A stretch of 54,788 nt of DNA, taken from the NCBI GenBank assembly GCA_031400775.1, contig JANNQN010000293.1:1-54788 (forward strand). Reading direction: 5' to 3'. Source of the DNA: Planctomycetia bacterium (lineage in GTDB: Bacteria; Planctomycetota; Planctomycetia; Pirellulales; PALSA-1355). This document shows, one piece after another, positions 10,735 through 18,759 of this stretch (positions within the stretch are counted from its first letter, which is position 1; each line of letters starts with the position of its first letter). The notes under the pieces are model-generated. The model was not told where the DNA came from and searched no databases. It saw nothing but the letters and a program-made list of their open reading frames with translations. A program made the translations under genes and the position numbers.

Positions 10735-11196
10735 TTACTCAAAGTGCGGCACGCAAAGCCGAATTGCTGTCTGAATTGCTTCGCCTATCTCAGTGACCGG
10801 TGCGTCCGCGCGCACGCGCTCGGTGACACGGGGCATCGGAACAAATCCGTTCTTCGGGCCGGCATTCTCCCATGGTTCGATGGTCAGCCATTCGCTGTCG
10901 TCGTCGGCTTGAACGCTGACAGAGCAAGCTCGTCGCGCGAACGCAGTCCAAGTCTTTACTCCGGCCAATTCCAACATGGACTTAAATCCGCACTCCAGTT
11001 CGGTCACAGTTGGCCGAGGTATTGCTGATCTCGACCCATTCAATGCTTCTACGACGGCGCTGCCGAGGGCATCGCACGAAGCATCCACTCCGAGGCTTAT
11101 TTCCGGCGGCGTGGCCACTCCAAGTCCGTCGATTGTTTTAGAAGTGGCATGCAAAAACCAACCGTTGGCTCGCCGATATATCGTTGCTCGCTTCAT
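10735..11196 (-). CDS. CdiI-like immunity protein (DUF1436/CdiI_2-like)
   Basis: Overlaps the toxin stop (4-nt ATGA-type coupling); DAS...LGSAVVEALNGSR and IGEAI..A patterns resemble CdiI partners of EC869-type DNases. Confidence 0.7.
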   Translation of the reverse strand: MKRATIYRRANGWFLHATSKTIDGLGVATPPEISLGVDASCDALGSAVVEALNGSRSAIPRPTVTELECGFKSMLELAGVKTWTAFARRACSVSVQADDDSEWLTIEPWENAGPKNGFVPMPRVTERVRADAPVTEIGEAIQTAIRLCVPHFE

Positions 11197-12674
11197 CGCT
11201 TCACCTCGATAACAACCACAGTCACTCCTCTCGATTGGCCATAGGATTTTAGCATAGCCAGAGCGCCGCGGTGCTGACCTGATGCACCGGGCGGAATCGC
11301 CAACTCCAGCGCGCGGCCCATTATCTCTCGTTCGGTGATCTCCGCACCTCCAAACTTTGCGCCTTTAAATGCGGCCACACTGTCAATGTACTCCTTGCAA
11401 ACCTTGTAGAAAGTTCCGGGCTTACGGTAACTAGGGGCTCGCAAATCGATGCTCTTTATGCTGGTTACGATTCCACCTATAAATTTGTCAATCACCGGAA
11501 AGGACCTGGGAAGAGTTTGGCCAAGCCGGTCGTGAATTATTTCACCGCGAACAACCGGTCCCAAGTCCCAAACGCCGCGATCTGCAATAGTTTCGGGCGG
11601 CGCCGGATTTGTGACTGTCGCATCTTGCTGTGCGGCCGCCGGCTTGGCAGGGACGGGCTTTTCACTTTCTGCGCTCGCCGCGCGGTTCTTCCGGCGCAGT
11701 AAAATGAACCCAATCACCGTCGCGGCTAGGCGCGCGCCACGGATTGTCTGTTCGTCCGCGCCAGCGGCGCGCAGGCCGGCCTCGACACCTTGTTCGGCGG
11801 CGCCCGCCGCCGCGGCCACGGCCAGCGCTTTGACGACGGCCCATTTGCCCCCTGTCTTGAAAGTAGTGACTAGAATTCCGCCGCCAACGACTATGCCTGC
11901 ACCGGTAAGCGCGAGATTCGTCCACTCCAAGCCGCCCACGACCCGGTTCATCGTCTTGTCGCGCCCGTGGGATCGCGCGTTCATTTGCATCAGTTGCCGC
12001 ATTGCCCGTTGGTCTTGCTGCTCGTCAGTAATCCTCGGCAGTCCGAAATGGGAGGGCGACAACAGCTTGGCCATACGGGCGTCTGCCTCACCCGACAGAT
12101 CGTCTCGCAGCCACGCGTTGCGCGCACTTTCCAGTGCGTCGTGGTAACGCCAGATCAGTGCCTCGCAAAGCTCGACTTCCGCTTCGGCGTCGACGGTTTC
12201 ATCGAGCTTCGCTGCGTCGAGCCGGCCGCCAAACTCGTCCAGCAATTGCTTGATTTCGTCCAGCGACCCCTGGGCATCGGCCAGCTTCTGGTTGAAAAAC
12301 TCCTCGCGCCGATTGGTCTCAACCGGCTTCGGCGGCGTCCGCCGCGAAATAGGAGGCTGTTCGGTCGCAGCCGGCGCGGGCGGCACGGCACGCGTTTCTG
12401 CGACAGGCAACAACTCGCAATAGCGGGCCCAGGCCTCAATCCAATCTTCGAACTCGCGAACGCTTTGGGGCGAAATCCGATAGCCGGCCGCCTCCTGCTC
12501 GGCGATAATCGCGTGCCACTGCTCGCGCCAATCGGCCGGCAGGCGGGCTGAAAATAGCACCGCGAAGAAGTCGTTGACCGCGTCGACCAGCGGTTGCAGT
12601 GCCGCCTCGAGCCGACGAAAAATGTCCTCGACCAAGAGTCGGCGGTTGTATTCAATCTGTTTGGCGAAATCCAT
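11193..12674 (-). CDS. Polymorphic toxin 1: novel N-terminal domain, helical/hydrophobic middle, CdiA-CT EC869-like PD-(D/E)xK DNase
   Basis: ATG at 12674 (MDFAKQI...). The C-terminus LPRSFPVIDKF..GIVTSIKSIDL...YIDSVAAF...I..RALELAIP...YGQSRGVTV parallels CdiA-CT of E. coli EC869 orphan 11 and Yersinia YPIII. Followed directly by a CdiI-like gene. Confidence 0.85.
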   Translation of the reverse strand: MDFAKQIEYNRRLLVEDIFRRLEAALQPLVDAVNDFFAVLFSARLPADWREQWHAIIAEQEAAGYRISPQSVREFEDWIEAWARYCELLPVAETRAVPPAPAATEQPPISRRTPPKPVETNRREEFFNQKLADAQGSLDEIKQLLDEFGGRLDAAKLDETVDAEAEVELCEALIWRYHDALESARNAWLRDDLSGEADARMAKLLSPSHFGLPRITDEQQDQRAMRQLMQMNARSHGRDKTMNRVVGGLEWTNLALTGAGIVVGGGILVTTFKTGGKWAVVKALAVAAAAGAAEQGVEAGLRAAGADEQTIRGARLAATVIGFILLRRKNRAASAESEKPVPAKPAAAQQDATVTNPAPPETIADRGVWDLGPVVRGEIIHDRLGQTLPRSFPVIDKFIGGIVTSIKSIDLRAPSYRKPGTFYKVCKEYIDSVAAFKGAKFGGAEITEREIMGRALELAIPPGASGQHRGALAMLKSYGQSRGVTVVVIEVKR

Positions 12675-12690
12675 TGCGAGAAACCCTGGG

Positions 12691-12767
12691 GTAGGCTGGA
12701 GACCGGAGGCTGGAGGCTGGGGGTCGGAAACGAAAAGCAAACTCACATCCCTCCGGCCTCCCGCCTC
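12691..12767. repeat. Intergenic GGAGGCT-type heptamer array with partial inverted copy
   Basis: gtaggct ggagacc ggaggct ggaggct gggggtc (12691-12725) and ctccggcctcccgcctc (12751-12767). Confidence 0.7.
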
Positions 12768-12774
12768 GCTTCAC

Positions 12775-13767
12775 CTACCGCCCTCCATAAATGGCTCGCT
12801 CTTCGCAGGCGCGCAGCCAAAAGGCGTCGTCAACTTGTTGCTTGGCGACCTCTGCGGCGGTTTTGGCGTCGCGCCGACCGGCCTCGACCAGAGCCTCGTC
12901 GAGAATGCGACGCGTTTCTTCGTCCGGAACGGACGCCAAGAGAATCGGGCGGGCCAGGGGTGGACCGCCGTCGGAGGTCGGCGATTGCAGTCTCGTCGCC
13001 CGCGGACTCAAGTCGGAGTCCGACGGGCGTTCCGGGACATCCGAGTCGCCTCTGCTATTGCTAAGCAATTCGATCGAGGGCCGCCAAGAGTCGTTGTCGG
13101 TTCTCAGCGGCCCGCGCTCAATCACAATTGGGTCGGTCGGCCGTCCGATGAGATCATCGATCACGCCATGATGCGGGGAGTTGAGATTCGGCACCCGATC
13201 AAATGCGCCGATATCCTTTATTGATCCGAAGTGTGGCTCAACCGGCTCCATCGCCATGAAGCCGCCGACGTCCAACGAGTTCGCGGCGCTGGTCGACTCT
13301 CGGCGATCTGCCGTCGCATCGTCGTTTTGGGAGTCGAGGTCCGCAGGCAGGTCCTGCCAAGTCGCGAACATGTCGCGCGCTACGCTCGCGGCAGGCACGT
13401 CGGCGATTGGGGGCGAGCGTAACGAGGCAGCAATCTCTTCGATCGGGGGAGGCGACAACGCGGCGTCCGACGCGAAAGAGTCGGTACCTGCCGGCATGTT
13501 GTCGATAGTGCCGTCCGAAGAGCGTCGTTCCGCGCTCGCATCTGGGATGGCATCGGGCGTCGCTTGTGCGCCGACATCCAACGAGCCGAACAACTCCGCA
13601 GGATCGAGCGCGTCGCTCGTCGTATCGGCATCGGTAACCTGGTCATCAGTTACGGCCTCAGTCGGTGGCTCCGGCCGTTTTTTGCCTGCTGGCTGTTCGG
13701 CCGGTTGCCGAATTAGCTCGGGCTCAAGTGCCGATTCGTCGGCGGTGCGAGGTCGTTTCGGATCCAT
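12775..13767 (-). CDS. Acidic, probably disordered protein with a helical C-terminal domain; first gene of toxin operon 1
   Basis: ATG at 13767 with AGGAG SD; rich in D/E/P/S/A; ends with RPILLASVPDEETRRILDEAL...FWLRACEERAIYGGR. Confidence 0.75.
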   Translation of the reverse strand: MDPKRPRTADESALEPELIRQPAEQPAGKKRPEPPTEAVTDDQVTDADTTSDALDPAELFGSLDVGAQATPDAIPDASAERRSSDGTIDNMPAGTDSFASDAALSPPPIEEIAASLRSPPIADVPAASVARDMFATWQDLPADLDSQNDDATADRRESTSAANSLDVGGFMAMEPVEPHFGSIKDIGAFDRVPNLNSPHHGVIDDLIGRPTDPIVIERGPLRTDNDSWRPSIELLSNSRGDSDVPERPSDSDLSPRATRLQSPTSDGGPPLARPILLASVPDEETRRILDEALVEAGRRDAKTAAEVAKQQVDDAFWLRACEERAIYGGR

Positions 13768-13819
13768 GGCGGACTTGCTCCTGCGGTTTGATGGCAAACA
13801 ACGTTCGATGACATGCAAC

Positions 13820-13876
13820 AAAAAAAGGCCCGTCGCTCGAAAGCGCGTTCGAATGCGCTCTCAAGCGACGGGCCTT
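13820..13876 (-). terminator. Intrinsic terminator in the leader of toxin operon 1 (attenuator)
   Basis: Minus strand aaggcccgtcgcttgagagcgc-loop-gcgctttcgagcgacgggcc followed by a U7 run, ending 52 nt before the ATG at 13767. Confidence 0.85.
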
Positions 13877-14029
13877 CTGGATACCTGCCTGTTGTCGGCA
13901 AGCCCCATGCAGTACCCGCGGTACCAATGCTATTTCGTGACGATCCGCGATCGATTGATCGCAGATCACTCCACGAACGGAAGCCTACCAGATCACGCGA
14001 CGACTGTCAGCGGCCGGAATTAGGCCACT
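13820..14029 (-). promoter_or_regulatory. Conserved leader copy A (promoter plus structured 5' UTR)
   Basis: CTGACA (14010-14005), N17, TGg-TAGGCT (13987-13982); homologous to 16329..16529. Confidence 0.75.
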
Positions 14030-14129
14030 TTCGAGCGGACGAGCCGCCCGCCGCGGCCGTGCCGTTACCGCATGTTTTTCTTGCCGATGTTGATGTCCGA
14101 AAATGGCCAGACAGAGTCCGCCAAAGCGG

Positions 14130-14141
14130 TAGAATCTGGTT
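14130..14141 (+). promoter_or_regulatory. Possible -10 box of a leaderless ada-alkA transcript
   Basis: TAGAAT at 14130-14135 lies 6 nt before the ATG at 14142; no SD sequence. Confidence 0.45.
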
Positions 14142-15611
14142 ATGGATTCGCATCACCAAAGTTGTTACCGGGCCCTCGTCGCACGCGACGCGCGCTTTGA
14201 CGGTTTGTTCTTCGTGGGCGTGACCACGACGCGAATATATTGCCGCCCCATTTGTCCGGCGCGCACACCCGGCAGTAAGAACTGCCGCTTCTTCCCCGTC
14301 GCGGCGGCGGCCGAGCAGGCGGGTTTCCGTCCATGCCTGCGGTGTCGTCCGGAGCTGGCGCCCGGCAACTCATCCGTCGATGCGGTGGGTCGCGTGGCGC
14401 GGATGGCGGCGCTGCGGATCCAGGCGGGGGCGCTCAACAATGGCGGCGACGTGGAAGAGTTGGCCAGCGAATTCGGCTTGTGCTCGCGGCAGTTGCGACG
14501 AGTCATGCGGCAGGAGTTGGGTGTTTCGCCGGTGCAGCTCGCGCAGACGCACCGGCTGCTGTTGGCCAAGCAACTCTTGACCGAGACCCATTTGCCGATC
14601 GTCCAGGTGGCGCTGGCCAGCGGATTCGAGAGCGTGCGACGTTTCAACTCGCTGTTCAAGTCGCACTACCGGCTGGCGCCGCGTCGTTTTCGCCGCTCGT
14701 CGCGGCCGGCCATGGACGGCGAGCCCCTGCGACTTCATTTGGCCTTTCGTCCTCCCCTGGCCTGGCCTGAGTTGCTGCGTTTCCTGGCGGATCGCGCGGT
14801 GGTCGGCGTCGAGCGCGTCTCGGCTGTGGGATACTCGCGCACCGTGGCCATCGGTTCCGCACGGGGTTGGCTCAGCGTGACGCCCGGCAAGATCTCCAAC
14901 ACGCTTTGCGTCGAGCTCGCACCTTCGCTCAGCGGCGTGCTGGCGCCGCTGCTGGCGCGACTCCGGCACCTGTTCGATCTGGGGGCGCGGCCCGCTGCCA
15001 TCGCCGGGCACCTTTCCGCCGACCCCAGGATCGGAAAGTCCGTCAAACGTTTTCCGGGCCTGCGCGTGCCGGGAGCCTTCGACGGCTTTGATCTGGCCTG
15101 CCGGGCGATCCTCGGCCAGCGGATATCGGTCCGCGCGGCCACGACACTGGCCGGGCGACTGGCGGCCCGGTTCGGCGAGACCATCGAGACGCCCGATCCC
15201 GCCTTGACCCGACTGGCGCCCGATCCCGAGAGGGTCGCAACCGCGGCGGTCGATGACCTGGTGGATCTGGGCATCGCACGCGCGGTCGCGGTTGCGATCG
15301 GGGCGCTGGCCCGGGCGGTGTCCGATGGGCGGCTGCGAATCGAGCCGGGGGCGCAAGTTGAATCCACGATCGATCAGCTTTGCGAATTGCCGGGAGTCGG
15401 CCCCTGGACTGCACACTACATTGCCATGCGCGGCCTGGGCTGGCCCGATGCTTTTCCGGATGGTGATCTGGGGCTGCTTCGAGGGCTGGGCGAATCGTCG
15501 GCCGCCCGTGTGCGGAATGCGGCAGAGGCCTGGCGACCGTGGCGCGCTTATGCGGTGATGCATGTCTGGAACCAATTGGCGAATTCTTCAAGCACGAGGA
15601 ACCGATCATGA
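14142..15611 (+). CDS. alkA: Ada-AlkA fusion (Ada Zn-binding, AraC HTH, AlkA N-terminal, HhH DNA-3-methyladenine glycosylase)
   Basis: RDARFDG.FF.GV.TT.IYCRPICPAR...GFRPCLRCRPE; ASGFESVRRFN; LPGVGPWTA.Y; DAFPDGD; WRPWRAYA. Confidence 0.95.
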   Translation: MDSHHQSCYRALVARDARFDGLFFVGVTTTRIYCRPICPARTPGSKNCRFFPVAAAAEQAGFRPCLRCRPELAPGNSSVDAVGRVARMAALRIQAGALNNGGDVEELASEFGLCSRQLRRVMRQELGVSPVQLAQTHRLLLAKQLLTETHLPIVQVALASGFESVRRFNSLFKSHYRLAPRRFRRSSRPAMDGEPLRLHLAFRPPLAWPELLRFLADRAVVGVERVSAVGYSRTVAIGSARGWLSVTPGKISNTLCVELAPSLSGVLAPLLARLRHLFDLGARPAAIAGHLSADPRIGKSVKRFPGLRVPGAFDGFDLACRAILGQRISVRAATTLAGRLAARFGETIETPDPALTRLAPDPERVATAAVDDLVDLGIARAVAVAIGALARAVSDGRLRIEPGAQVESTIDQLCELPGVGPWTAHYIAMRGLGWPDAFPDGDLGLLRGLGESSAARVRNAAEAWRPWRAYAVMHVWNQLANSSSTRNRS

Positions 15612-16150
15612 ACCTTGCAGAAGTGAACTATACGGTGATTGAGAGTCCGATTGGCCGCCTGCTTGCAGTCGGTGATGACGCCGCGCTGTGCGGACTCTAC
15701 ATGGAGTCGCACAAGCGCGGTCCGGCGCCGAACGACCGCTGGCGGCGCGACGATGACTCGCTGCGATTCGCGGCCGAGCAAATCGAAGCTTACTTCGCGG
15801 GCCAGCTCGAGCAGTTCGACTTGCCCTGTGTGACCGCGGGCACGCCCTTCCAGCGCCGCGTATGGACGGCGCTTGGCGAAATTGGCTTCGGCGAAACGAT
15901 TACGTACGCACGATTGGCCCAGCGCGTGGGTGCGCCACGGGCGGCCCGCGCGGTCGGCGCCGCGGTGGGGCGCAATCCGATCTCGATTATCGTGCCCTGC
16001 CATCGTGCCGTGGGGTCGAACGGAAGCCTGACTGGTTTTGCTGGCGGCCTGCCGCGCAAGCGATGGCTGCTCGAACATGAACAAGCGGTGCTGGGAGAAC
16101 GGTCCGGCTGCACGGCGGGGCCAGGTCTGTGCCAGGCTGCTGGCAAGTGA
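15608..16150 (+). CDS. ogt: Methylated-DNA--protein-cysteine methyltransferase
   Basis: ATG at 15608 overlaps the alkA stop; GTPFQ..VW, ARAVG.A...NP, active site VPCHR. Confidence 0.95.
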   Translation: MNLAEVNYTVIESPIGRLLAVGDDAALCGLYMESHKRGPAPNDRWRRDDDSLRFAAEQIEAYFAGQLEQFDLPCVTAGTPFQRRVWTALGEIGFGETITYARLAQRVGAPRAARAVGAAVGRNPISIIVPCHRAVGSNGSLTGFAGGLPRKRWLLEHEQAVLGERSGCTAGPGLCQAAGK

Positions 16151-16328
16151 TTCGCGTCCTCTGCGTGCGGTGTCGATTTGACGGGCCAAAACGTGGCCGC
16201 CAGTGGGTCAGGTTCGTTTCGCCGCTGGCGGCGAATTCGCCCCGGGATTGGAGCCCGTCCGAGACTTGCTGGGTGGACGCACATGTTGGCCTAGCGCTTC
16301 CGAACACAAGTCGCTGGACTCTATAGCG

Positions 16329-16529
16329 AGTGGCCTAGTTTCAGGCGCAGAAATCGTCGCGCGTCTTTGATAGACTTCCGGCATTGAGTTGTGAACACAA
16401 GTTCATCGACTCATCCGTTAATTGCCTGTCTGCGGGTATTGTGCGGGGCCTGCCACTAGAGCGGGTATCCGAATGGGCCCGTCGCTCTTGAGCGCATTTT
16501 CAATGCGTCCGAGTGCGGCGGGCTTTTTT
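16329..16529 (+). promoter_or_regulatory. Conserved leader copy B (promoter plus structured 5' UTR)
   Basis: CAGAAA (16348-16353), N17, TGa-TAGACT (16371-16376); shares blocks AGTGGCCTA, TCGTCGCG, CTTCCG, GCGGGTAYTG, GGGGCYTGCC, GGTATCC, GCCCGTCGCT and GAGCGCATT with copy A. Confidence 0.75.
16477..16529 (+). terminator. Intrinsic terminator in the leader of toxin locus 2 (attenuator)
   Basis: gcccgtcgc...gcggcgggc stem (one G-U pair) with an inner gcgcatt/aatgcgt helix, then U6; ends 61 nt before the ATG at 16591. Confidence 0.8.
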
Positions 16530-16590
16530 ATTGGCCGTGCATGCAGCCGGCGAGTTGGCCGCGGTCCCGACTCTCACTTTGGATAGGACC

Positions 16591-18151
16591 ATGGACTTCT
16601 CCAAACAGATAGCGGAAGACCAGCGATTCCTGCTGGCGGATTTACACCGTCGCATCGAAGCGGCGCTCCAGCCGTTTGCGAATGACCTCGATGACTTCTT
16701 GGGAGTCCTCTTTCAAGCGCGCCTGCCCGCGGATTGGCGTCAACAGTGGCACAATTTTGTGGCCGAGGCAGCGACCAAGGGCTTTTTCGTTAAGGGGAAG
16801 AGCGTTGTTGAGTTGGAGGAATGGATCGAGGCTTGGGCCCGGTTTTGCGGATTGCTCCCGCTCGGTTCTGAATTCGGACAGCCGGAGAATCCATCGGGAA
16901 TTCGGACTCTTGTGGGATCGTCCGAGGACCGCGAAGCTTCGACATTACCTGGCACCTACCAATCGGCCGATCGCGGCGCGCCGATCCTGCTAGCGAGTGT
17001 CCGACCAGGCAAGCAGGGCACGACTCCGTCCAAACCGGCCCCACCAAAACCTGCCGCTCAAACTCCGCCAAAGCCACCTGCTCCAGCGCCACCCGAACCG
17101 CCCGGGCCAACAGCGAAGCTTAATGATGACGGTGTCGAGGTGGCCGGACCCGGTCCCGACACAACCATGTGGTATCGCGTCAAGGTTCGCAAGGCGCTCG
17201 AGATCTTGGATCCTCGCATTGCCCGCTGGTGGCACGCCAACAGCGTCAGCGGACTGGTTCGTTCGCGCGGCGGCCGCGTTTTGGCAGCATGCGCATTACA
17301 GCCGGATGGATGAGGGTAATCGGCCCGTCATCGTTGTTGACGAGGATTACACGGCCGGCCAAACGGCGCAAGCCATCATTGCGGAAGTCACGGGCGGTTG
17401 GTTCGCAGATTCGATTGGCGCGTTTTACAAGAAGTATCGCTTTTCGCAGACGGGCGACTTCGAGGATTTTCGCAAATGGCAGTTGGGCGCCGTCAAGGAA
17501 GCGGCGCAACTGGCCAGCCAGTTAGCCGAGCTGTACGTCAATGCCATCGCCACGCTCACGCCGGCCGGCGACCTGGTGGTCTTCACCACCGACGCGATGG
17601 AACGCGGCCTGAAGCTCGACCAGCTCGTAAACCTGCTGCCGCTGTTGGCTCATTTGCCGATTGGGGCAATTATCGTCAAGTTCGGCAAGCGGCAAGTAAA
17701 GCTCACGAAGCAACTGGCTCGCGACTTCGAAAAGCTGAGCGTCGAACAGCGCACAATCCTTTTGGAAAAAGCAGCGGCCGCCAAGACCGACGAAGAAGCC
17801 GTCGTTATAATCAAGCGCGGCATTGAGGCCGCCACAGAAACCGAACACCACATTGCTACCAACAAGAACTGGCTATCGACGCTACGCGGTGGACCTTGGA
17901 GTCCGAGGTTTCAGAAGTTCTTTAAGAAAGCCGGGCTCACACTTGAGGACGCTGCGAATAAGGTTCGCATTCCAGCGCATCGCGGGCCCCACCCCGAGGC
18001 GTATCATCAAGAGATATACGATCGACTTGAACTGGCAACGGGCAGCAAGAGTGGAGCAGCATACAGAAACGCGCTTTTGGACGAGCTCCGCAAAATCGGA
18101 CGTGAGGCTAGTACACAGGGAACGAAACTAAACCGCTTGCTTACTGAGTAA
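16591..18151 (+). pseudogene. Polymorphic toxin 2: novel N-terminal domain, Pro-rich linker, AHH (HNH/EndoVII-fold) nuclease; apparent +1 frameshift near 17269
   Basis: ATG at 16591 (MDFSKQI...) homologous to toxin 1. That frame ends at 17313, while the +1 frame continues ...AAAFWQH... to EHHIATNK...GPW...KAGL.L...N...HRGPHPEAYH. Could be a real pseudogene or a sequencing error. Confidence 0.8.
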
Positions 18152-18171: not shown

Positions 18172-18759
18172 ATGTTTCAGACTTCGGCCAAACCCAAGCA
18201 ATTGTTTCGAATCCTTGCTGACCATATCCAATACCCCGACCAATGGTTCTTGGACGACCCATTGACTGCCGACGGCTGTGATATCGATCCTCGTGAATTC
18301 ACCGCTGGAAGTCCCTATTGCGGCCCAACACCGGTTGTGGCATCCATCGGGAATCCGGGCAGGGAACTGGCGTTTAATCTCGGCGCCTTTGACATGCCAG
18401 TCGTGTCGTCGGCAGTGGCGGACATCATCTGGCGGATTGCCCCCCTCGACGTTCAATGTTTCTCGATCGACATTCCCGGTGCGGTCGGCTCCTATCAAAT
18501 CCTCAACGCGGTCTGTTCGCTCGATTGTCTGGATGAAGAGCGATCCGAGTTCACGCGATTCCAAGTCGGTGACCATCGATCCGATCTGATCGGCCAGTAT
18601 CATTCGATCCCAACGATTCGTATCGATCCATCCCGCACACTCGATCACCACGTGTTCAGAATACTCAACTGGCACGTTGCGGTACTCGTCTCCGACACCA
18701 TTAAAGACGCATTGGCTGACATTCCACACCTCGGTATCGTCTTCAAGCAGGCCTCGTGA
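18172..18759 (+). CDS. Imm11/DUF1629-family immunity protein, cognate to the AHH toxin
   Basis: PVVS..VA......AP.DVQ, ILN...LDCLDE, IRIDP, VFR, LVS..IK.AL...G..F motifs; 20 nt after the toxin stop. Confidence 0.8.
   Translation: MFQTSAKPKQLFRILADHIQYPDQWFLDDPLTADGCDIDPREFTAGSPYCGPTPVVASIGNPGRELAFNLGAFDMPVVSSAVADIIWRIAPLDVQCFSIDIPGAVGSYQILNAVCSLDCLDEERSEFTRFQVGDHRSDLIGQYHSIPTIRIDPSRTLDHHVFRILNWHVAVLVSDTIKDALADIPHLGIVFKQAS

Follow-up and report, generated by a model that had tools for sequence, protein, structure and literature searches.

Two toxin operons lie divergently on a 54,788-nucleotide contig of a Planctomycetia bacterium of the order Pirellulales (assembly GCA_031400775.1, contig JANNQN010000293.1, the whole of which we call the window), and each begins with a leader in which a promoter-like site and hairpins are followed, before the first start codon, by what looks like an intrinsic terminator. 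What these two leaders have in common, and why a gene should stand behind such a terminator, is the question addressed here. An earlier note, made from the sequence alone, had described a conserved structured leader of about 200 nucleotides (nt) upstream of both toxin loci and had proposed that it acts by default-off attenuation or as a small RNA. To our knowledge, almost no RNA regulators have been described in this phylum, and we know of little on how polymorphic toxins are switched on outside a few model systems.

The structured leader with its terminator ahead of the open reading frame (ORF) was borne out, but the conserved unit is a core of about 90-105 nt and not a cassette of about 200 nt, the promoter and the first hairpin being optional. 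The core consists of two direct units of the form GUAUC(C)-N3-4-GRGC, of which the first opens a small hairpin, P3, and the second opens the terminator. It is a new, uncatalogued RNA family, unusual both in its design, tandem units fused to a terminator, and in its set of downstream genes. It adds a well-supported, order-wide motif to a phylum with few known RNA regulators, and offers a testable handle on the activation of polymorphic toxin loci.

The conserved core and its structure

Both leaders contain all the features that the earlier note had named, namely promoter-like hexamers, a first hairpin (P1), a conserved block, a small stem and a long terminator. They are placed as follows:

16329-16533, plus strand: copy A, whole leader
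16329-16337, plus strand: conserved box AGTGGCCTA of copy A, 5' of the -35 hexamer, a possible operator half-site
16348-16376, plus strand: promoter-like site of copy A (CAGAAA at 16348-16353, 17-nt spacer, TGaTAGACT at 16368-16376)
16385-16413, plus strand: P1 of copy A, from a predicted fold; variable in sequence and outside the core
16432-16441, plus strand: conserved GCGGGTATTG of copy A
16434-16454, plus strand: unit 1 of copy A, GGGTATT, 4 nt and GGGGCCTGCC, the last being the 5' arm of P3 (from family column counts)
16445-16470, plus strand: P3 of copy A, with motif 2, GGTATCC (16464-16470), inside its 3' arm (from covariation)
16475-16529, plus strand: intrinsic terminator of copy A, stem 16475-16523 and U run 16524-16529, then ATTG
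13817-14029, minus strand: copy B, whole leader
14021-14029, minus strand: conserved box AGTGGCCTA of copy B
13982-14010, minus strand: promoter-like site of copy B (CTGACA at 14010-14005, 17-nt spacer, TGgTAGGCT at 13990-13982)
13936-13975, minus strand: P1 of copy B, from a predicted fold
13879-13917, minus strand: core of copy B, with motif 1 GGGTACT at 13917-13911, P3 at 13906-13879 and motif 2 GGTATCC at 13885-13879
13820-13874, minus strand: intrinsic terminator of copy B, 20-pair stem 13874-13827 and U run 13826-13820, then GTTG

The U run lies 61 nt 5' of the ATG at 16591 in copy A and 52 nt 5' of the ATG at 13767 in copy B. Judged by its sequence, the feature named a terminator has the make-up of an intrinsic (Rho-independent) one, a G+C-rich hairpin directly followed by a U run; a terminator scan detected the stem of copy B (20 pairs, 14 of them G-C, followed by TTTTTTT) and the upper stem of copy A with TTTTTT. 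Over 319 alignment columns the two copies have a mean column identity of 76%, and none of 200 dinucleotide shuffles folded as well as either of them (copy A, -71.4 kcal/mol, z -6.1; copy B, -92.0 kcal/mol, z -9.9). Since the first proteins 3' of the two copies are mutually unrelated, the folds surpass their shuffles, the genome holds eight copies and the helices covary, the likeness of A and B goes beyond chance.

BLASTN in the bacterium's own genome returned one copy at 92% and three partial copies. A first covariance model, R1, was made from five own-genome copies and has 41 pairs, eight of them with compensatory change. It scores its source copies at 139-154 bits and also finds weaker matches; in these five copies P1 keeps its pairing despite differing sequence. 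A match of R1 at C404:13500-13702 (23 bits), with a terminator-like end and without the GUAUC motifs, was dropped as spurious, and partial reverse-strand matches on terminators were attributed to their palindromic hairpins. A second model, R2, describes the core alone. It matches copy B at 13820-13926 with 82.6 bits and finds eight full-length copies in the genome, those besides A and B being:

C124:446-553
C124:13644-13755
C205:670-776
C258:1418-1539
C458:22079-22168
C339:15437-15528

The family was defined on 96 full-length R1 matches from 32 genomes. Five of these did not resolve into two motifs (L038, L059, L070, L083 and L103) and were dropped, as were three exact duplicates and the aberrant L077; with L099 and L106 re-trimmed, 87 sequences, all selected by R1, were aligned with MAFFT (alignment A5). 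The core runs from GGGUAUC through 3-5 nt to GRGC and the 5' arm of P3, then through a loop of variable length to the 3' arm, which ends in GGUAUCC; RRAG follows, then GCCCG, which opens the long hairpin, its closure CGGGCYC, and 5-9 U. In the 87 sequences the columns of unit 1 read G79 G87 G86 U87 A83 U81 C70, then G87 R87 G86 C85, and those of unit 2 G87 U85 A83 U85 C79 C75, then G80 R87 G86 C86 C86 C83. GUAUC, GRGC and the CCC/GGG of the terminator are thus kept in about 79-87 of the 87 sequences (the final C of unit 1 in 70), and the GCCC of the terminator 5' arm and the GGGC of its 3' arm are nearly invariant. This constraint exceeds what pairing needs, which fits sequence-specific recognition and calls for a reader of the GUAUC units and of CCC/GGG.

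The structure tested on A5 comprised 10 pairs of P3 and 17 of the terminator, with 500 shuffles. Of all cells, 88.4% can pair as against 76.7% in the shuffles, 21 pairs show compensatory changes as against 13.9, and the covariation score is 0.414 as against 0.213; no shuffle reached the observed value on any of five measures, and a control with slid partners gave pairing in 35-48% of cells. Within P3, C-G and U-A replace each other at pairs 28-71 and 29-70, the exchange being seen in 35 and 31 of the 87 sequences. In the terminator 89.8% of cells pair, 15 of the 17 pairs show compensatory change, and at least 5 U follow. A further 67 matches from other species, drawn from loci located by way of the head protease described below, gave 90.9% pairing as against 76.5%, with 0 of 500 shuffles reaching the pairing or the covariation score, in an alignment that was fitted by the covariance model and so leans towards the modelled structure. 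Building a model from homologs, as the earlier note had recommended, thus gave clear covariation in both helices, and P3 and the terminator are under selection. Furthermore, the GRG(C) of unit 1 has as its partners the G, U, U and C of motif 2, whose A is bulged out (G-U in 84 of 87 sequences, A-U in 56 or G-U in 29, G-C in 79), so that motif 2 is partly hidden in P3.

No known family accounts for the element. Rfam 15 gave no match at gathering scores in the whole window, in agreement with the earlier view that this is no known riboswitch class. With permissive settings over 13600-16800 the sole match was noise, mir-248 on the terminator of copy B with 20.1 bits where the gathering score is 90, and seven related loci (35,406 bases) gave none at an E-value of 1 or better. 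Titles and the opening parts of abstracts on structured RNAs with intrinsic terminators, or on gene transfer agents, in Planctomycetes hold no description of the element or of the gene cluster discussed below. PMC10690425 names DNAVirus_1944, a candidate RNA of Caudovirales that have a Planctomycetes host, and the motif may be among the 10,006 unnamed candidates of that study.

At an E-value of 1e-5 or better, R2 matched 68 of 151 sampled Pirellulales genomes, our own included, in 20 of 30 sampled families, with 1-11 copies per genome. In other orders of the phylum, 150 genomes gave no match at 1e-6 or better, which makes the model specific. Order and family are given here as named in the titles of related records. 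Because the genomes of the order are all kin, tallies over them should not be read as independent events. G156 and G126, which belong to other families of the order, have 11 and 9 matches, and the element has consequently multiplied outside the family of the window as well.

Downstream genes and the phage-like cluster

The element is bound to the gene that follows it. In 81 of the 96 cases it stands directly 5' of, and on the same strand as, a member of one of five conserved gene families, and this holds for every element whose downstream gene could be classified; gene calls were made by ORF heuristics in high-GC DNA. The classes are:

33 of 96: polymorphic toxin with N-terminal family N2 (locus L083: AHH and Imm11)
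30 of 96: polymorphic toxin with N-terminal family N1, the type of the window
13 of 96: a papain-like protein of 192 amino acids (aa), then a trypsin-like peptidase
4 of 96: head protease/scaffold, then Phage_cement_2 and Phage_capsid_4 proteins
1 of 96: a small ORF and a ParB-like gene
15 of 96: unclassified, 7 of these with less than 500 nt downstream before the contig end

The claim that the leader precedes toxin loci therefore stands for 63 of the 96, but the element is not specific to toxins, since it also heads both modules of the phage-like cluster; the list of downstream genes, another check that the earlier note had proposed, shows that homologs are not scattered. In the bacterium's own genome the five loci with an N1 domain coincide exactly with the five strongest elements. 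An acidic ORF of 260-350 aa lies between element and toxin in 13 of the N1 loci.

The spacing is as regular as the order. Across 91 distinct flanks on the downstream side, what comes after the U run is GUUG (G 59, U 55, U 61, G 55), then a Shine-Dalgarno-like stretch and then the start codon, which lies about 13-60 nt 3' of the U run with only the Shine-Dalgarno sequence in between. From the end of the match to the conserved ORF there are 3-30 nt in most loci (median 23 for N2 toxins, 4-19 nt in 12 of the 13 cluster-start copies, 17-19 nt for the head protease). So short a gap leaves no space for a separate promoter, and the downstream genes can be transcribed solely through the terminator; the strict coupling of position and strand to the next gene argues for action in cis.

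A strict sigma-70 scan did not pick up the promoters of copies A and B. Under a looser rule they score 4.5 and 6.5 against a cut of 5, which 2.2% of shuffles reach; sites at or above the cut were found in 25 of 31 N2 toxin copies, 13 of 29 N1 toxin copies and all 13 cluster-start copies, at a predicted distance of 15-96 nt from the -10 to motif 1. At the head module, by contrast, none of the 62 copies with at least 700 nt upstream (of 66 matches) has one, so the promoter belongs to the context and not to the core. P1 is likewise missing from the cluster-start and head-module copies. The box AGTGGCCTA, identical in copies A, B, C and E, lies about 10 nt 5' of the -35 at toxin loci. In three relatives (L043, L046 and L112) an inverted repeat GTGGCY..RGCCAC, seen by eye, surrounds the -35 with matching changes in both halves, a sequence pattern that suggests an additional DNA-level operator for a repressor.

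Both non-toxin classes, peptidase and head protease, belong to one cluster of phage-like lysis, packaging and head genes. On contig C458 (22079-28338) the order is element, papain-like protein, trypsin-like peptidase, a 290-aa protein, an 83-aa membrane/coiled-coil protein, a ParB-like protein, an ATPase and terminase; on C339 (1-17902) it is portal, a 60-aa ORF, element, protease/scaffold, cement protein, capsid, and connector and tail-like genes. The layout with two elements recurs in three other genomes (G029, G031 and G010) and one IMG/VR contig, and in the order-wide R2 search many genomes had two matches on the same contig about 9-11 kb apart. Our genome and G029, which is of a different genus, share the neighbours moaB and a gene for a coenzyme A-binding protein, which suggests that the cluster is inherited vertically, and 107 of the 151 Pirellulales genomes encode the head protease, usually as a single copy. 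The cluster is complete, with lysis-type peptidases and packaging, head and tail genes, and has a domesticated look, comparable to a gene transfer agent or tailocin. In G029 a gene resembling, by eye, a transposase of the insertion sequence type IS200/IS605 (L122:9709-10158) lies between the ParB-like gene and the terminase region.

The association was also approached from the protein side. An alignment of five head proteases led to 231 related stretches in species-level genomes, of which 80 were kept; their record titles name Planctomycetota and Pirellulales, often Thermoguttaceae. In 66 of these 80 loci R2 finds the element on the same strand, 19-148 nt 5' of the head protease, and the 14 loci with no match include one with no upstream sequence (L177) and two with about 130 and 274 nt (L216 and L192). 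Relatives labelled Rhodopirellula or Thermoguttaceae are among the carriers of the element.

The strongly conserved 60-aa ORF just upstream of the head-module element (L138:15638-15814, minus strand, and 15 further loci; alignment A8) encodes the pattern ..LRRGFxGTAxVELxVQDGTIQxIRRRVERIEK, and ends 1-148 nt 5' of the element in at least 35 of 62 loci. It was found only in genomes with the head protease: of the 107 such genomes 56 have both element and ORF, 1 the element only, 18 the ORF only and 32 neither, counts that come from kin genomes and neighbouring features and so provide no independent test. In Pfam the protein has no family, apart from a faint trace of DUF2292 in 2 of 16 members (best E-value 0.09); it has no sequence relative among solved structures, and its predicted model, a helix and a beta hairpin with a predicted local distance difference test score of 81, gave no Foldseek match at an E-value of 0.001 or better. 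It is a candidate for a factor that acts on the element in trans; against this role, 11 genomes that bear the element have neither the ORF nor the protease, among them four of the family of the window with 5-8 copies each.

The genes behind the two copies in the window are:

16591-18151, plus strand: polymorphic toxin behind copy A, N1-type in its N-terminal domain and with an AHH nuclease at the C terminus (Pfam AHH, 7.8e-17)
18172-18759, plus strand: immunity gene Imm11 of locus A (Pfam Imm11, 2.1e-7)
12775-13767, minus strand: first ORF behind copy B, acidic, proline-rich, 330 aa, with homologs in the same position in 11 loci (family FAM 2)
11193-12746, minus strand: polymorphic toxin of locus B, its N-terminal domain of N1 type and its C-terminal nuclease CDI_toxin_EC869-like (Pfam, 2.4e-12)

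The N1 domain of the locus B toxin was placed at 12674-12363 by tblastn (51% identity), and the 330-aa ORF before it has no Pfam or NCBIfam match. At locus A the toxin gene is split by a frameshift near 17270, which could be an assembly error or mark a pseudogene: in tblastn with an uninterrupted paralog of 518 aa (C124:14919 onward), residues 1-226 fall in frame 1 and residues 225-518 in frame 2. Neither N-terminal family, N1 (16591-16920; 12363-12674 on the minus strand) or N2 (L065:2112-3482), matches Pfam or NCBIfam. N1 reads RLEAALQP..LF.ARLP.DWR..W, and N2 reads EAWLFAQ..GKPIP followed by LEWLA repeats. Both might serve in trafficking or loading, with a tie to the phage-like cluster. Of the findings here, PMC3482391 concerns the toxin domains alone. 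The spacer between the divergent loci holds two alkylation repair genes, an ada-alkA fusion (14142-15611) and ogt (15539-16150), which show no sign of belonging to the RNA element.

A proposed terminator gate and its rivals

The default-off attenuation proposed in the earlier note fits this anatomy best when it is read in cis, with the start codon so close behind the terminator. The reading we prefer, to which we give an even chance, is that the element is a cis-acting terminator gate, closed by default and opened by a factor with the two GUAUC(C)-N3-4-GRGC units as its recognition sites. Its working parts would be the mostly single-stranded GGGUAUC, P3 closed by GRGC with the G, U, U and C of GGUAUCC, a purine linker of 3-4 nt, and the strong terminator with its GCCCG. 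Polymerase arriving from the element's own promoter (toxin loci and cluster start) or from an upstream gene (head module) would stop at the U run, and would read through solely when a trans-acting factor recognised both direct units. In the version we favour, the factor would bind the exposed unit 1 first and open the base of P3, thereby freeing unit 2; a second copy of the factor on unit 2 would keep the start of the terminator 5' arm single-stranded, and the hairpin could not reach the U run. Alternatively, antitermination might be processive, of a Q-like or N-like kind. The data themselves show its anatomy, covariation, placing and strand, and the genes behind it; termination in vivo, regulated read-through, recognition at the RNA level and the nature of the factor are what we infer for this gate. 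Its presence at toxin operons and at both modules of the phage-like cluster probably makes them one co-induced regulon. More tentatively, and with rather less confidence than we have in the gate itself, we suggest a new class of antitermination by RNA recognition across the Pirellulales, which would wire nuclease-toxin operons into the late circuit of a vertically inherited phage-like particle; if so, one gate, present 2-11 times in each genome, would let a subpopulation of cells induce toxins, lysis peptidases and particles jointly. If confirmed, attenuation by tandem units, the second of them concealed and joined to a very long terminator, would be mechanistically unusual.

Several observations weigh against the gate or limit its support. 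The single RNA run found, a metatranscriptome, held a fraction of 0.09 of the sampled words, and its nine contigs on 13000-18000 (90-95% alike) cover short parts of ada/ogt and one part of a toxin gene and none of the element; such short conserved pieces from relatives are uninformative on expression. In the genome, which is 96.7% complete, Phage_antitermQ (PF06530) has no match (a fold-level relative could be missed), Antiterm (PF03589) reaches 19.5 bits against a cut-off of 26.7 and Phage_AlpA (PF05930) 19.7 bits against 21, while the only NusG paralog (C432:33733-33960, minus strand; L061:1249-1848; NGN and KOW domains, about 190 aa) has an in-frame TAG. According to an excerpt of PMC10325885, stems of more than 14 bp resisted processive antitermination by conAn in B. 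subtilis, and the stems at toxin loci have 17-23 bp. This length, together with the lack of Q, AlpA or an intact NusG paralog, makes us prefer blocking of the 5' arm to the processive version. Partial read-through before the head module would put capsid below portal expression, which is odd unless read-through is complete once induced. The predicted unpaired probability over G, U, A, U and C is 0.35-0.70 for motif 1 and 0.10-0.83 for motif 2, so that modelled accessibility backs an open unit 1 and a hidden unit 2 only mildly. Finally, covariation cannot separate RNA from single-stranded DNA.

Four other explanations deserve weighing. An independent small RNA, or a terminated leader of about 90-160 nt acting in trans as a protein sponge or by pairing of GUAUC with GGAUACC-like targets, would agree with the own promoter-like site and strong terminator of the toxin-locus and cluster-start copies, with up to 11 copies per genome and with motifs predicted to be partly single-stranded. 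We give it a small chance, as a role in trans leaves unexplained why there is one copy per operon, strictly coupled in position and strand to a start codon about 13-60 nt past the U run, and because the head-module copies are intra-operonic and devoid of a promoter-like site. Slightly less probable to us is a constitutive partial terminator, or a processing and stability module, that insulates operons, fixes expression ratios and protects mRNA ends by its hairpins: its position between portal-side and head genes would suit such a function, and PMC11658703 describes insulator terminators in mobile elements, but it explains neither the two sequence-constrained units nor why very long, near-perfect stems with 6-8 U should lie directly between a promoter and its gene.

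An ON riboswitch comes a shade below this in our estimate. Here a small molecule or nucleotide would stabilise a helix between the GGG of motif 1 and the CCC of the terminator arm, which would close the GUAUC internal loop around P3 and block the terminator. About 20 conserved nt do flank a covarying hairpin with a variable loop next to a terminator that could serve as expression platform, the CCC is kept far beyond pairing needs, and the three GGG:CCC pairs are possible in 77, 86 and 85 of the 87 sequences. These pairs are invariant, however, and hence uninformative either way, while the next three positions of the helix pair in 69.7% of cases as against 69.1% in shuffles (127 of 500 shuffles reach this). 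Alternative registers of the anti-terminator helix were tried and gave no support beyond GGG:CCC. Moreover, a helix of 3 bp would have to compete with a terminator of 17-23 bp, and the downstream genes encode toxins and phage-like structural and lysis proteins, not metabolic or transport functions. By far the least probable is a site read in DNA, with the direct repeats as an operator, a roadblock or a pac-like site for a small terminase or repressor and the hairpins incidental. The repeats are about 30 bp apart and one copy heads the packaging module, but duplex DNA offers no reason for compensatory changes in P3 or for the fixed strand and start-codon distance, and the distance between repeats is not constant, ranging over 20-54 nt with insertions inside P3.

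Relation to known systems

The element is a member of none of the antitermination, RNA-signal or pyocin systems with which we compared it. For a mobile repeat, such as a miniature inverted-repeat transposable element or a repetitive extragenic palindromic sequence, the association of 81 of 96 copies with five gene families on one strand is the wrong pattern. A type III toxin-antitoxin system of the ToxIN kind was rejected since the downstream genes are diverse (AHH, EC869-like nuclease, protein immunity, peptidases, head protease) and not one endoribonuclease family. The ops element is a sequence of 12 nt. With RfaH and ops/JUMPStart the element shares a short G-rich motif containing GGTA in the leaders of long operons, toxin operons included, and the earlier note had called it loosely ops-like; this likeness is lost in the family consensus, GGGUAUC, which occurs twice and is partly paired in a hairpin, and the NusG paralog is interrupted. 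Riboswitches with terminator platforms likewise have a conserved, covarying 5' element adjoining a terminator near a start codon; here there is no alternative pairing backed by covariation, no metabolic gene set and no Rfam match.

RNA-borne signals that act in cis are closer. HutP of B. subtilis is an RNA-binding attenuation protein that prevents terminator formation; it controls a catabolic operon and answers to a metabolite that it binds. Two spaced single-stranded motifs in or just before the terminator 5' arm, as found here, would fit a multimeric protein holding that arm, but the motifs themselves are unrelated. In phage lambda, N acts with nut (boxA and boxB), an antitermination signal carried by the RNA. 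PMC9378689 and PMC8191782 describe cis-acting antitermination by the put RNA and by the conAn2 RNA of pLS20, which can repeat within a phage or mobile element. With lambda N/nut, HK022 put and conAn2 the element has in common a structured or sequence-specific nascent RNA that would act in cis on its own polymerase; it differs in having no sequence or Rfam relation to them and in the fusion of the terminator to the signal, 3-4 nt after motif 2, and its stems are longer than those said to yield to conAn in the excerpt of PMC10325885.

In function, the closest known systems by analogy are the terminator-bearing leaders opened by AlpA and BrrG. According to PMC7969949 and PMC9371919, the alp lysis genes of P. 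aeruginosa have a promoter and a leader with an intrinsic terminator that is opened by a dedicated antiterminator, AlpA, and an excerpt of 10.1101/2024.11.20.624540 gives the same arrangement, with the factor BrrG, for the capsid operon of the Bartonella gene transfer agent. In what these sources describe, the likeness to AlpA, BrrG and the Q proteins of phages lambda, 21 and 82 lies in the promoter, the terminator leader, the phage-derived genes and expression by a dedicated factor. Those factors load at a DNA element in or near the promoter, whereas here the conserved part lies in the transcript and occurs also where there is no promoter, and the genome holds no Q or AlpA homolog above cut-off.

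At the level of the regulon the closest parallel is that of the pyocins. In P. aeruginosa a shared P box and PrtN serve the soluble nuclease pyocins as well as the R and F pyocins, so that one cis element ties together nuclease toxins with their immunity, a phage-derived apparatus and lysis, as the element does here. The P box is a DNA site for an activator, and the element is a transcribed hairpin-terminator module; a conserved phage-like cluster of the Pirellulales that shares its control element with toxins would thus be an RNA-level counterpart of the pyocin regulon.

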